IMG/VR virus record: IMGVR_UViG_3300021338_000005
Coordinates: 1 to 50,655 of that record
Source of the DNA: a virus
Lineage: Duplodnaviria; Caudoviricetes
Length of the DNA: 50,655 nt
Reading direction: 5' to 3' (one strand)
Positions 8,609 through 33,428 of this stretch are shown in pieces (position 1 is the stretch's first letter; every line of letters begins with the position of its first letter). Below the pieces are notes generated by a model that was not told where the DNA came from, made no database searches, and saw nothing but the letters and a program-made list of their open reading frames with translations. The translations under genes and the position numbers were made by a program.

Positions 8609-8687
8609 AATATTAATTTTTACTATTTTTGTTTTATATTTATGTTTTTAATGTAAAAATTACAACAATAGGTAACTTTATTCGGTT

Positions 8688-9092
8688 GTTAGGCACAATT
8701 AAGCGAAGTAACCCGCAATTGCCTTGGGTCTTATTATAAAATACTCCTTGTCGTTTAATTTTATTGAGTTGCTGTACATATATTCATCACATACAACTAA
8801 ATCACCCAATTCAATTGCTCTGCCCAATGCCTCGTAATTAACATTTTTAGCAATTTTCACTACTTTGTATATTTGTCTGTGTTCTGTCCTTTCAATTAAC
8901 ACTTTACCATTAGCTAATGTTAATTTCTCAATTGAAGTTCTCTTTTTAAACATAATTAACTGTGCCTAACAATTTGTATAATTCAGTTGGCTGTTAAGCT
9001 ATATTTACCAACTTTAGCACATTTAATTAAGTTTTGTTCGGTTAACATGGTTAGTGCTATTAATTCCAACCGAAATCATACAAGTGGTCGTT
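8688..9092 (+). mobile_element. integron-cassette-like unit (core site, inverted gene, attC-like hairpin)
   Basis: GTTAGGCACA 8688-8697 and TGTGCCTAAC 8961-8970 are exact complements around one ORF; hairpin arms TTGTATAATTCAGTTGG / CCAACCGAAATCATACAA, ending in GTTAAC at 9090. Confidence 0.65.
8699..8953 (-). CDS. hypothetical protein, weak GroES-like character
   Basis: KVLIER..VVKIA..IELGDLVV..IKLNDKEYFIIRPKAIAG parallels the Cpn10 layout. Confidence 0.6.
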   Translation of the reverse strand: MFKKRTSIEKLTLANGKVLIERTEHRQIYKVVKIAKNVNYEALGRAIELGDLVVCDEYMYSNSIKLNDKEYFIIRPKAIAGYFA

Positions 9093-9432
9093 AACTAACC
9101 TTAGTTATATCTTTTAAAAACTCATCTACTTGGAATTTAGACCTTTCAACCGCTTTATCAAAAAGAACATCTAAACTCTTTTCATCAACATCTAATAAGT
9201 TTCCAAATACTTTTCTTACTTTTCTAGTTATAAAATAAAAGAATTGATTTGTCTTTTGTTTAAACTCTTTAACAAAGATACTATCTCCTTTTATATTTGA
9301 GTTTTTAAGCTCTGATAGTGCTATTTCTAGCCCTAGAGTCCAAATGTATGCAGTTACTAAAAGTAAATGGTTTTTAGTTACTTTGTTTGGTGCTGGCTTG
9401 TAATCTTTTACGCTTACTAATTTTTTATTCAT
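9091..9432 (-). CDS. hypothetical protein
   Basis: 113-aa ORF; stop codon overlaps GTT site. Confidence 0.75.
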   Translation of the reverse strand: MNKKLVSVKDYKPAPNKVTKNHLLLVTAYIWTLGLEIALSELKNSNIKGDSIFVKEFKQKTNQFFYFITRKVRKVFGNLLDVDEKSLDVLFDKAVERSKFQVDEFLKDITKVS

Positions 9433-9442
9433 AATATAAGTT

Positions 9443-9664
9443 TTATATTTTTTCTTTTATAAACATTTCGATTTCATCTTGTGTAATTGGTGTCTTTTCT
9501 GAGTCTTCATTGTACCAATCAACAAACTCTATTAATAACCCCATTGAGTCTCTAACAAATTTAATATTAACATTAATACCCTTATTAATTTCTTGTTGTA
9601 TTTTTTTATCAAATGCTTCGTATATTTCCTTTTGTAATAGTCCAAGCTCTAACTGTTTTGTCAT
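9443..9664 (-). CDS. hypothetical protein
   Basis: ORF in leftward operon. Confidence 0.7.
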   Translation of the reverse strand: MTKQLELGLLQKEIYEAFDKKIQQEINKGINVNIKFVRDSMGLLIEFVDWYNEDSEKTPITQDEIEMFIKEKI

Positions 9665-9819
9665 AGTTCTATTTGTTTTATTTGTGCGTTTATAAAATCT
9701 CTTTTTTCAGTTAACCTTTTTAGTCTTCTTTTCTTTACAGATGTCTGTAATCCAGTTTGGTATCCTATTATAATACCTATTAAAACACCAAAAATACAAA
9801 ATATTATTTTAATCCCCAT
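9661..9819 (-). CDS. 52-aa membrane-anchored protein (not in ORF track)
   Basis: MGIKIIFCIFGVLIGIIIG...; promoter box TAACTTTG at 9849-9842; ATGA overlap. Confidence 0.65.
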   Translation of the reverse strand: MGIKIIFCIFGVLIGIIIGYQTGLQTSVKKRRLKRLTEKRDFINAQIKQIEL

Positions 9820-9859
9820 AATTTAATTTTTTAATTTAAAGCAAAGTTAGTAATTATTT

Positions 9860-10021
9860 TTAATTAGACAAATTTAATACTTTTATTTTTTTTCCGTTAG
9901 ATGTAATTAAAATAAAAAATCTATAATCACAGTCGTTACAAACCTTAACGTGTTTAGATAGTTTTTTATCATCTTTTAATTCCCCACTACATCTAGGTCA
10001 GTACTTTATATCTTTACTCAT
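9860..10021 (-). pseudogene. zinc-ribbon ORF with in-frame TGA at a Cys position
   Basis: MSKDIKY*PRCSGELKDDKKLSKHVKVCNDCDYRFF...; TGA at 10000-9998. Confidence 0.65.
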
Positions 10022-10065
10022 GTTTTATTTATTTAATACTATCCCTATATCCATTGAAGTTTAAA

Positions 10066-10506
10066 TTACTTATAGATAACACCTCTTATTCTTAACTCTT
10101 TTTTATTATTTTTATTTTTTTTCTTCTTTGGTTTTGTAGATACATATTTATTAACAAGAAAAGAATCAATAAGTTCTTTAAATAACTCTAAGTACTTTAT
10201 GTCATAGCATTCTGTTTTACCAGAAAAATTTTTATTAGGCTTATATCTAAGTCCATTAAAAATAGTATGTAATGTCCTTTCTATCATTTCAGCGTTCTTT
10301 ATTTCTAAAACCTTTATAACTCTCCAGTTATAAGGGAAGTCTTTTTTGAATCTATCTTTTATATACTTTAGCCTTGTAAATCCTATTTTTAAAAATCTTT
10401 CTTTTTCATCATCAGAATAACATTCTATTAGGTATATTTTATTTTTATTATACCTTTCATTATACTGCTTGTCGTTTATCTTTTTGTTTATTAATTTGTA
10501 ACTCAT
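10066..10506 (-). CDS. GIY-YIG superfamily nuclease (T5orf172/MUG113-like)
   Basis: IYLI..FLKIGFT..RF..EMIERTLH..GKTECY. Confidence 0.8.
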   Translation of the reverse strand: MSYKLINKKINDKQYNERYNKNKIYLIECYSDDEKERFLKIGFTRLKYIKDRFKKDFPYNWRVIKVLEIKNAEMIERTLHTIFNGLRYKPNKNFSGKTECYDIKYLELFKELIDSFLVNKYVSTKPKKKKNKNNKKELRIRGVIYK

Positions 10507-10554
10507 TTTTACTTATTATATATTATAATTAACTAATGCTTAGAGAGAGTTCTT

Positions 10555-10835
10555 GAGTTAAAAGCATAGTAGTATTACCCCTAAACTAGAATATTAATCT
10601 AATTTGAGCTGTACTATACTTTTAAAACGAATTAACTAACAAATGCTTGTCGGTCGTCCTATCGTTATTAAGCACTCTAATTACTCGATAGTAGCATTAG
10701 AGATGAAGTCTATTTTAGAAACTATCATTCCGTTGTTCAGGCTCTCTTCTTTTGTAGCACCTTGCAAATATGAACACCCCAATGGTTTTGCACTTAATTT
10801 ATACCGCCACCGTATTAAACCAACCAGTATAAAGT
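10555..10835 (-). ncRNA. putative structured ncRNA upstream of the GIY-YIG gene
   Basis: Hairpins at 10798-10833, 10763-10792, 10675-10702 and 10560-10623; G-U pairs favour the minus strand. Confidence 0.5.
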
Positions 10836-32909: not shown

Positions 32910-33301
32910 GAAATATTAAATACATCGTATTACATTGCACAGCTACCAGTCAGGATTCAAAAGTAGAAAGTATAAAGAATTATTGGAAAAATAGATTAGG
33001 TTGGAAAAGTGTAGGCTATCATTACTTAATTGACAAAAATGGAGTAATACACCAACTCGCAGACGAAAACGAAATTACAAACGGTGTAAGAGGTTATAAT
33101 AGCGTGAGTCTGCATATTAGTTATATTGGCGGTAAAGATAAAGACGATAGAACAGAAGAACAACAAGAAGCACAAAGGGTACTTATTAAGATGTTAAGAA
33201 ACAAATACCCTAACGCAGTTATTCAAGGTCATAGAGATTTTGATGGAGTTCGTAAAAGTTGCCCTAGATTCGATGTTAAAGAATGGCTAAAAACATTCTA
33301 A
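32906..33301 (+). CDS. endolysin, N-acetylmuramoyl-L-alanine amidase (T7 lysozyme-like)
   Basis: IVLHCTA, GYHY, GHRDF, KSCP. Confidence 0.93.
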   Translation: MRNIKYIVLHCTATSQDSKVESIKNYWKNRLGWKSVGYHYLIDKNGVIHQLADENEITNGVRGYNSVSLHISYIGGKDKDDRTEEQQEAQRVLIKMLRNKYPNAVIQGHRDFDGVRKSCPRFDVKEWLKTF

Positions 33302-33323
33302 ACTGAAACATTAAAACGTTTCA

Positions 33324-33373
33324 TAACAGCCACTAAAACTCATTAAAACGCGTCTTAGTTTAGTGTTATAAAC
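33324..33373 (+). repeat. compact attC-like element, 27-nt repeat copy 1
   Basis: TAAC-agcc-ACTAAAACTC-attaaaac-GCGTCTTAGT-ttagt-GTTATAAAC. Confidence 0.6.
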
Positions 33374-33428
33374 AGTTATTTTTTATCAAAGTTAATAACT
33401 AATTTTAATTAACAAAACATTTCACATA

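Follow-up and report, generated by a model that had tools for sequence, protein, structure and literature searches.

The cassette slot and its gene

The DNA analyzed here is the marine phage genome in IMG/VR record IMGVR_UViG_3300021338_000005 (50,655 nucleotides; hereafter the window), and our subject is a small unit at positions 8689-9090 that comprises one gene for a predicted GroES-like co-chaperonin and an adjoining imperfect hairpin. A sequence-only reading had proposed that this unit resembles an integron cassette in a phage that encodes no integrase. The same 127 nt are present at both ends of the window, and the virus record carries direct terminal repeats and is rated 100% complete. 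Thus, the window represents one circularly assembled phage genome of ~50.5 kb, and its G+C content is 28.6%. The slot is part of a leftward-directed operon of small genes; a promoter-like site at ~9835-9872 lies on one side, and the convergent terminase gene (6260-7660) lies on the other. The unit therein occupies an accessory-gene slot between a conserved 113-aa gene and the terminase region (Table 1).

Table 1. Features in and around the cassette slot of the window (L001 and L017, sibling contigs; R2, covariance model described in the text; the slash in G/TT marks the crossover point)
Feature	Positions	Strand	Basis or remark
84-aa gene, predicted GroES/Cpn10-like co-chaperonin	8699-8953	-	Pfam Cpn10, predicted structure, Foldseek
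Putative cassette by the G/TT rule, gene plus attC-type hairpin, 402 bp	8689-9090		GTT at 8688-8690 and 9090-9092; segment replaced in L001 and L017, flanks kept
Left 17-nt arm, leading core GTTAGGC and stop codon of the 84-aa gene	8686-8702		homologous arm with covarying changes in L001
Right 17-nt arm, inverse core GCCTAAC	8956-8972		ends 2 nt before ATG
Imperfect hairpin of attC type (127 nt; from AAC to GTT along the gene's strand)	8967-9093	-	TAAC...GTTA; anchored hairpin -13.3 kcal/mol
GTTAAC junction, right crossover G/TT	9090-9095		overlaps stop codon (9091-9093) of the 113-aa gene; L001/L017 homology resumes here
Conserved upstream flanking gene, 113 aa, no family	9091-9432	-	92-93% protein identity in L001 and L017
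Next gene downstream, 75 aa	8381-8608	-	swapped for an unrelated 81-aa open reading frame in L001; window 8356-8644 and L001 3315-3631 without homology
Intergenic island common to L001, left arm and putative truncated attC-like remnant	8645-8702	-	86% identity to L001 3257-3314; R2 match 8665-8699(-), 13.7 bits, E 0.12

The match of the 84-aa product to Pfam Cpn10 (E 0.002) lies below the family cut-off. An AlphaFold model made from 6 sequences has a predicted local distance difference test (pLDDT) score of 76.6, and when this model was compared with the PDB by Foldseek, all matches down to T4 gp31 (listed rank 36) were of the Cpn10/GroES type except for two chains of ClpP complexes (best E 3e-4, TM 0.55-0.67). 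The product is therefore predicted to be a GroES-like co-chaperonin. Five metagenome homologues with 70-95% identity were recovered, and no relatives of the gene were present in the viral-contig or genome-contig collections.

Complementary arms bracket the gene

As the sequence-only reading had observed, a perfect 12-bp inverted pair surrounds this one open reading frame (ORF): TTGTTAGGCACA at 8686-8697 and TGTGCCTAACAA at 8961-8972, which are the sole two exact copies in the window. This pair proves to be the core of the longer 17-nt arms, which are complementary at 16 of 17 positions. The only non-Watson-Crick position is A/C on the + strand and hence G.U or G.T on the strand of the gene. 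The bracketing is as tight as had been claimed, because the stem stops 2 nt before the ATG and includes the stop codon. Both cores also fit, with GTTAGGC (8688-8694) conforming to GTTRRRY and GCCTAAC (8964-8970) conforming to RYYYAAC. The layout is therefore that of an integrated cassette, in which the leading core is complementary to its own inverse core. Specifically, the first bases of the cassette (GTTAGGCACA..) are complementary to the inverse core that precedes its own hairpin, as is expected if the unit was once circular and its two ends formed the base of a folded site.

Short inverted repeats can arise by chance in an AT-rich genome, and perfect inverted 12-mers within 400 nt are indeed about as frequent in the window as simulated (11 seen versus 9.6 +/- 4.2 in 200 Markov simulations, no excess). 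The energy of the bracket is a different matter. The duplex between the start and stop regions of the cassette ORF reaches -24.0 kcal/mol, the next of 87 ORFs attains -11.6 kcal/mol, and none of 7482 mismatched start/stop control pairs reaches -18 kcal/mol. These values, together with the recurrence of the arms in other viral loci (39 of 73 motif hits) and in host arrays and with the covariance-model match (all described below), refute a chance match, whose probability we regard as practically nil. A bracket system acting throughout the window was likewise considered and rejected, because start/stop bracketing of the other 86 ORFs is at the level of the controls.

Inverted repeats of 17 nt that flank a 253-nt segment, with TTAA at the outer end of both arms, might also be the ends of an inverton or of a transposon resembling a miniature inverted-repeat transposable element (MITE) with a passenger gene. 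However, the arm motif is present in the window as this one inverted pair, a copy number of one. No opposite-orientation copy of the gene was found in the two sibling contigs or in the contigs of four seawater DNA runs, although contigs cannot exclude rare forms. Furthermore, the inner hexamer of the arm differs from cassette to cassette and covaries within each cassette, which favors base pairing over an end recognized by a protein. An inverton or MITE-like element is consequently a very improbable explanation.

An attC-type hairpin

The ~130-nt imperfect hairpin described in the sequence-only reading is real. It spans 127 nt, with arms TTGTATAATTCAGTTGG (8974-8990) and CCAACCGAAATCATACAA (9066-9083), and it ends at GTTAAC as had been stated, albeit one base to the left of the end first given. 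The stop codon of the neighboring gene is the complement of 9091-9093. According to the excerpted text of Loot et al. 2017 (PMC5371416), attC sites are imperfect hairpins of 57-141 nt in which the AAC/GTT triplets alone are conserved. The window hairpin is imperfect, falls within this size range and has AAC ... GTT triplets at its base. When folded alone, it yields z -2.4 as - strand RNA (4 of 200 shuffles fold as well), z -2.2 as - strand DNA (6 of 200) and z -1.3 as + strand DNA (20 of 200). The fold includes an asymmetric internal loop (GACCAC versus AT on the - strand) and one bulge, possible counterparts of the unpaired central spacer and extrahelical bases that set strand choice in attC sites, and this layout aligns with the consensus of the host arrays.

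A lineage-specific covariance model, called R2, was built from 33 host-array hairpins that represent six Bacteroidota genomes (Salinimicrobium, Maribacter, Christiangramia, Rubrolithibacter, Pedobacter and an uncultured Flavobacteriaceae genome) and that include zero phage sequences. Alignment A6 used 9 of 39 Salinimicrobium sites and left out the short phage-type hairpin of L151 along with several weak or coding-like hairpins. With this model, the attC score sought for the window hairpin was obtained: a full-length match at 8959-9099(-) with 34.6 bits and E 1.2e-6, rank 1 in the window (E-values are rough owing to a shortened calibration). The next matches are 1868-2010(+), with 16.9 bits and E 0.021, and the one in the intergenic island of Table 1. 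Among 30 unrelated control loci (253,895 nt), nothing exceeded 16.3 bits except for three tandem matches in L015.

The L015 matches lie at 2142-3707 (-) and score 28, 26 and 13 bits, in a contig that had been fetched by an unrelated 16-mer as a negative control. This contig probably holds a further member of the family.

The suggestion that attC-like hairpins form a genome-wide system in this phage is not supported, because the window has only one strong site, and hairpins of the TAAC..GTTA kind number 24 versus 17.1 +/- 3.7, which is not a clear enrichment. Several weaker signals can nonetheless be recorded. An ORF starts within the second-best match (1868-2010), and a possible partner arm, AATATGACTAAC, is located ~895 nt downstream at 2905-2916; near-matches of this type would arise by chance as well (9 in the window versus 6.3 expected). 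Weak matches at 1298-1351(-), 33283-33386 and 42603-42668(+) have E 0.017 and 0.12 with R1, a model made from the 39 Salinimicrobium sites alone, and E 0.5-0.6 with R2, and none is significant. Some of the weak matches coincide with other hairpins that had been called attC-like.

Cassette arrays in Bacteroidota chromosomes

A scan of one genome per prokaryote species with the arm motif returned at least 120 loci, mostly chance matches. Among the matches listed, 10 of 120 genome loci have a partner arm at >=14/16 positions, and the seven that were kept are all from Bacteroidota: Salinimicrobium, Maribacter and Christiangramia (Flavobacteriaceae), Rubrolithibacter (Sphingobacteriaceae), Pedobacter, an uncultured Flavobacteriaceae bacterium and a Bacteroidales metagenome-assembled genome. 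The others, one Methylophilaceae place seen twice (L169/L191) and a Rhizobium locus (L161), were set aside because their partners lack a TAAC end.

A 60-kb stretch of Salinimicrobium sediminilitoris (G001:C11) contains the one array that was mapped completely. At least 39 hairpins, each 119-124 nt long, are spread over positions 341,943 to 371,529, with all intervening genes on one strand, and the array ends at a gene for a 374-aa tyrosine recombinase that points in the same direction as the cassettes; no such periodic hairpins occur beyond it. The enzyme scores 233.8 bits with NF040815, "tyrosine recombinase/integron integrase" (cut-off 220), and matches Vibrio IntI4 (PDB 2a3v) with E 7e-36 in two stretches. 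Each cassette has the form GTT-N6-AGT ... ATT-N6'-AAC, where N6' is complementary to N6, and the G.T wobble of the phage arms recurs there. Arrays of this kind are also found at the Maribacter, Christiangramia, Rubrolithibacter, Pedobacter and uncultured Flavobacteriaceae loci, and four of five genomes searched have IntI-like top matches. The Maribacter array includes one short hairpin of the phage type, similar to the L040/L017 type, and after it comes a bracketed unit that has the arm motif. Earlier work had already reported integrons in Bacteroidota (PMC8618304, as excerpted). Judged by sequence comparison, the window arms and hairpin belong to the family that fills these chromosomal arrays in Flavobacteriaceae and other Bacteroidota.

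Related units in viral contigs and cultured phages

A degenerate form of the arm motif was found at 72 viral-contig loci. With the window included, 39 of 73 motif hits have a complementary arm (>=14/16 positions) 125-344 nt downstream. An ATG follows the arm within 2-11 nt in most of these 39 bracketed units (2-3 nt in 19), and a TAA stop codon falls in the first four bases of the partner arm in 22 of them. The bracketed genes themselves vary in length and sequence. On the upstream side of the arm, ~32 distinct loci have hairpin elements, 116-155 nt long, with perfect 13-21-bp stems whose sequences are locus-specific. These are the 32 of 42 unique upstream elements that were kept (110-160 nt, strong stem); L021 and L070 were dropped as coding-like. 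RNAalifold applied to 12 hairpin elements revealed compensatory changes at 6 of 14 pairs, and in 24 of 32 elements it is the sense strand that folds better. The arms on the two sides of a hairpin match at merely 4-11 of 16 positions across the 32 elements, which implies that covariation joins the two ends of a cassette rather than the flanks of a hairpin. This end-to-end covariation within the cassette is as the integron model predicts.

With R2, 74 viral loci (665,761 nt) gave 110 matches at E<=0.01, many in tandem arrays. Cultured phages are among the carriers. Polaribacter phage P12002L has 7 matches at E<=0.002, which may include attC1 and attC2 of Qi et al., beside methyltransferase genes. 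Cellulophaga phage phi18:3 has two matches, of 74 and 45 bits, and its tyrosine recombinase gene, ~460 nt away, encodes an enzyme outside the IntI/Xer-like type (XerD, 29 bits). The stronger of the two phi18:3 matches (L221, 868-1009) is directly upstream of the DNA methylase gene gp032 (1046-2125).

Replacement of the slot in sibling phages

Two siblings of the window were available for comparison, an IMG/VR contig (L001/L010, 10.2 kb) and a 1.8-kb metagenome contig (L017). A terminase-based search for relatives returned the L001/L010 contig alone, and of 14 viral-contig loci that contain the 16-mer TAACAACCGAATAAAG, L010 is the sole one related to the window by blastn. In both siblings, the stretch from the stop codon of the 113-aa gene to window position 8702 is replaced. 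The slot there carries an unrelated gene of ~97 aa, and the spacers differ from that of the window and from each other.

A precise polymorphism at GTT, whose absence the sequence-only reading had named among the grounds for refutation, is thus present. To the left of the slot, the common flank runs as far as ..CGGTTGTTA, and to the right, homology restarts exactly at TTAACTAACC. The left flank is common to the window and siblings up to ..GGTTGTTA, and the siblings read A/TT at the right junction. Read along the gene's strand, the last bases that the left flanks have in common are ..GTTAGTTAA, after which the window continues with C and the siblings with T; the shared right flank starts with TAACAACCGAATAAAG. 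The break points on the + strand are therefore N/TTAAC and a position inside GTTGTTA, where a G/TT crossover would fall. Homologous arms, TGTTAGCCACCGTTAA / TTAATGGTGGGTAACA, also surround the sibling gene; they differ from those of the window by two compensatory double changes and one breaking change and retain the same G.U. These alignments show that a slot of this phage lineage has received different cargo.

An alternative account of these exchanges is that the arms and hairpin are conserved linkers and that genes are swapped by ordinary or short-homology recombination, such that the attC ancestry is historical only. The model for this is the promoter-early stem-loop (PeSL) cassette of T4-type phages, where short intergenic motifs mark swap points of small accessory genes; PeSL-mediated shuffling has been documented and mini-circles have been reported (PMC2839356, PMC4122927, as excerpted). 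The window and L010 are mosaic, with swapped genes separated by short islands (promoter-like at 3467-3567, 5090-5161 and 9827-9876; the hairpin 8313-8355; and 8645-8702). Moreover, the phage genome lacks a recombinase gene and the sibling sites appear degenerate. Exchange points also occur at both arms, since one gene can have different hairpins (L068 versus L086 and L090) and one hairpin can have different genes (L042 versus L086). However, in the excerpts cited above, PeSL are direct repeats with a sigma-70 promoter and terminator that act by homologous recombination, whereas the window signals are inverted, cassette-specific and homologous to host integron sites. A sigma-70 promoter/terminator scan, with a tool that lacks Bacteroidota promoters, found no outstanding site in 8954-9090 and 15 sites in 7500-10100 versus 17.0 +/- 4.4 in shuffles, and the arm motif forms one inverted pair; the hallmarks of PeSL were thus not found around the cassette. 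Homologous recombination leaves unexplained both the covariation of arms within a cassette, rather than with its neighbors, and the right-hand break relative to L001 and L017, which falls to the base at N/TTAAC. PeSL-like ordinary recombination within the conserved arms does explain part of the mosaic, but as an account of the unit as a whole it is unlikely.

Gene polarity, recombinases and a possible RNA function

The gene is inverted relative to usual cassettes, as had been pointed out, and this peculiarity generalizes. In 53 intervals between consecutive R2 matches at 15 viral loci, the open frame is on the model-match strand in 23, on the opposite strand in 0 and ambiguous in 30, or 23 of 23 resolvable intervals. 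The corresponding numbers for the Salinimicrobium array (n=37) are 0 on the same strand, 26 on the opposite strand and 11 ambiguous. Reversed polarity is the rule for the phage copies examined.

The absence of an integrase also holds for the complete phage genome, in which PF00589 and PF00239 have 0 matches with positive controls working. Without a recombinase match, the unit does not qualify as a complete integron, and a lone site of this kind is called a single attC site or a cluster of attC sites lacking an integron integrase (SALIN/CALIN). Of five array-bearing viral records, a single one encodes a tyrosine recombinase, which adjoins its array; the two records rated 98-100% complete have none. 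The array-adjoining viral ORF shares 45% identity with the Salinimicrobium enzyme over 266 aa.

One contig deserves separate mention. In L055 (91% complete, 89.7 kb), an IntI-like recombinase gene at 184-996(-) is ~1 kb from an array of 7 R2 matches (2006-4576), an arrangement that would make this phage-like contig the carrier of a complete integron-like unit.

An alternative is that, in the phage, the element functions mainly as RNA. The 17-bp long-range stem might loop the gene and cover its start region and stop codon, and in this way limit or time translation or protect the transcript. Perhaps the upstream 127-nt hairpin is a processing or stability element, which is plausible and compatible with a cassette. 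Several observations are consistent with an RNA role. The fold of the 457-nt sense RNA includes the 17-nt stem and, separately, the branched hairpin (z -3.06, 0 of 100 shuffles). The sole non-Watson-Crick position is G.U on the mRNA-sense strand, and this is kept in L001, most of the 39 units and the host arrays. The preference for the sense strand among the 32 elements, the placement of ATG and stop TAA at the arms of bracketed units, and the location of phage genes on the better-folding strand in 23 of 23 cases point the same way. On the other hand, no Rfam family comes near its gathering score in window 8300-9500, L001 2700-3400 or six related loci. The same wobble and arms are also present in host arrays with genes on the other strand, which indicates that the pairing is not tied to mRNA there. 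A primarily RNA-based function is a possible but less likely explanation.

A probable integron-type cassette without an integrase

We favor the interpretation that 8689-9090 is a single integrase-less integron-type cassette, composed of a GroES-like gene and a ~127-nt attC-type hairpin, that belongs to the Bacteroidota array family, and we give this roughly a three-in-four chance of being correct. The mechanism we envision is that an IntI-like tyrosine recombinase of a Bacteroidota host acts in trans on a folded single strand during infection. The strand that folds would be the sense strand of the gene, and the enzyme would exchange cassettes at G/TT between phage genomes and host arrays. The window cassette was probably exchanged at G/TT in the past by such an enzyme, and recombination in this phage might be ongoing. 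Phages and their Bacteroidota hosts probably trade genes by way of such cassettes.

Several results count against this interpretation. With R1, the window hairpin attains 13.8 bits (E 0.11) and rank 3; this model proved too species-specific and for that reason was replaced by R2. A small part of the R2 score is circular, because the last positions of the model cover part of the arms and because the arm motif had led to two of the training rows (L166 and L197). The sibling hairpins score poorly with R2 (8.4 bits for L017, not found for L001), and the sibling junctions read AAT rather than AAC (A, not G, before TT), which suggests that decay may be under way among the sites of this phage lineage. 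At 9090-9096, the hybrid site reads GTTAACT and departs from GTTRRRY. The reassortment of genes and hairpins among L068, L086, L090 and L042 is also explained by ordinary recombination within conserved arms. The Salinimicrobium recombinase reaches 211 bits on TIGR02249, below the cut-off of 265 and with the match in two pieces. Finally, the four seawater runs, each with an identical 50,558-nt contig and possibly the source, contain the window form only, with no variant or alternative joint at the cassette, although contigs cannot show rare forms and this observation weighs neither way; no RNA run is listed with this sequence.

It is tempting to join the recombination and RNA proposals. Marine Bacteroidota phages might maintain their own pool of reversed-polarity cassettes in which one sequence serves as both a single-stranded DNA recombination site and an RNA expression gate. 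Because the gene would be on the strand of the recombinogenic hairpin, every phage-type cassette would be transcribed together with its own attC as structured RNA, and the 16-17-bp stem would close over the start and stop codons as a built-in expression gate. As single-stranded DNA, the same sequence would allow a host IntI-like enzyme to let integrase-less lytic phages swap genes with each other and with host arrays, and the phage-type cassette in the Maribacter array might be a trace of such traffic. We offer this combined view tentatively, as a possibility whose odds are well short of even.

Neighboring features

The surroundings of the slot also differ between the window and L001/L010. Between the end of the terminase gene and the hairpin 8313-8355 is a 220-aa HNH-like homing-endonuclease gene (7636-8298, -) that is missing from L001/L010, where the terminase stop abuts the counterpart of this hairpin. 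Its blastn matches are genes annotated as HNH endonucleases in phages of Firmicutes. When 7600-10600 was compared with isolate phages by blastn, all 26 records obtained matched solely this gene. The terminase large subunit is itself mosaic. Window 6260-7660 is 80% identical overall to L001 3674-5044, with residues 244-466 nearly the same (one difference; 99% by tblastn) and a divergent N-terminal half, which suggests a recombination point inside the gene. On the other side of the slot, a 146-aa gene related to T5orf172/GIY-YIG (10066-10506, -; Pfam E 1.4e-6) has other genes at the corresponding stretch of L001.

A tRNA scan of the window identified tRNA-Cys alone, which is located elsewhere. 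Repeat families with TTTG ... TAACTTTG are found upstream of window genes, a pattern that is the promoter type of Bacteroidota.

Relation to known systems and significance

Phage-borne attC sites are already known as a kind. In the excerpted report of Qi et al. 2023 (PMC9892861), IntegronFinder was applied to 10,705 phage genomes and revealed integron components in 21, including 17 CALINs. P12002L is one of these CALIN phages. Five of six tested phage attC sites, including one from P12002L, were recombined by IntI1 at G/TTRRRY, and phage cassettes often carry methyltransferases. As in the window, attC-type sites occur there in virulent phages that have no integron integrase. As far as the excerpt goes, that work employed the general IntegronFinder/HattCI models, whereas the window presents a single site, recognized by a Bacteroidota-specific model, with a reversed gene and replacement in siblings.

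The family likewise resembles sedentary chromosomal integrons in having gene arrays separated by hairpins, a putative unpaired asymmetric spacer, an adjoining recombinase of the Xer/IntI family and a cassette start complementary to its own inverse core. It departs from them in that the Salinimicrobium recombinase is co-directional with the cassettes and falls below the cut-off of the integron-integrase subfamily, that the complementarity of the cassette ends extends over 12-17 nt rather than 7, and that the window has one cassette and no integrase. The pdif modules of Acinetobacter plasmids are another relevant comparison, because they consist of genes bracketed by inversely oriented short sites for an Xer-type recombinase provided in trans. 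However, pdif sites are conserved 28-bp double-stranded sequences, whereas the bracket in the window is variable, covaries and is accompanied by a long hairpin.

Literature searches did not uncover a description of the Bacteroidota phage family or of reversed polarity, and the site coordinates in the supplement of PMC9892861 were outside these searches. As far as the literature was searched, the new elements are the lineage-specific family, the reversed polarity in phages, the stem over the start region and stop codon, the 12-17-nt complementarity of cassette ends and the slot refilled in sibling phages.

Integrons have been regarded chiefly as devices of bacteria, and attC sites carried by phages have passed for a rarity (components in 21 of 10,705 isolate genomes in the 2023 survey). 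The lineage-specific attC family described here links lytic-type marine Bacteroidota phages to the cassette arrays of their host phylum, and this family is probably under-detected by general models. In practical terms, R2 is an attC model for Bacteroidota that can be used to annotate the accessory-gene slots of marine viromes. The polarity counts suggest that the cassette pools of phages and hosts are separate but connected. If a host recombinase acts on these sites, then phages that lack an integrase would both draw on and feed the cassette reservoir of their hosts.

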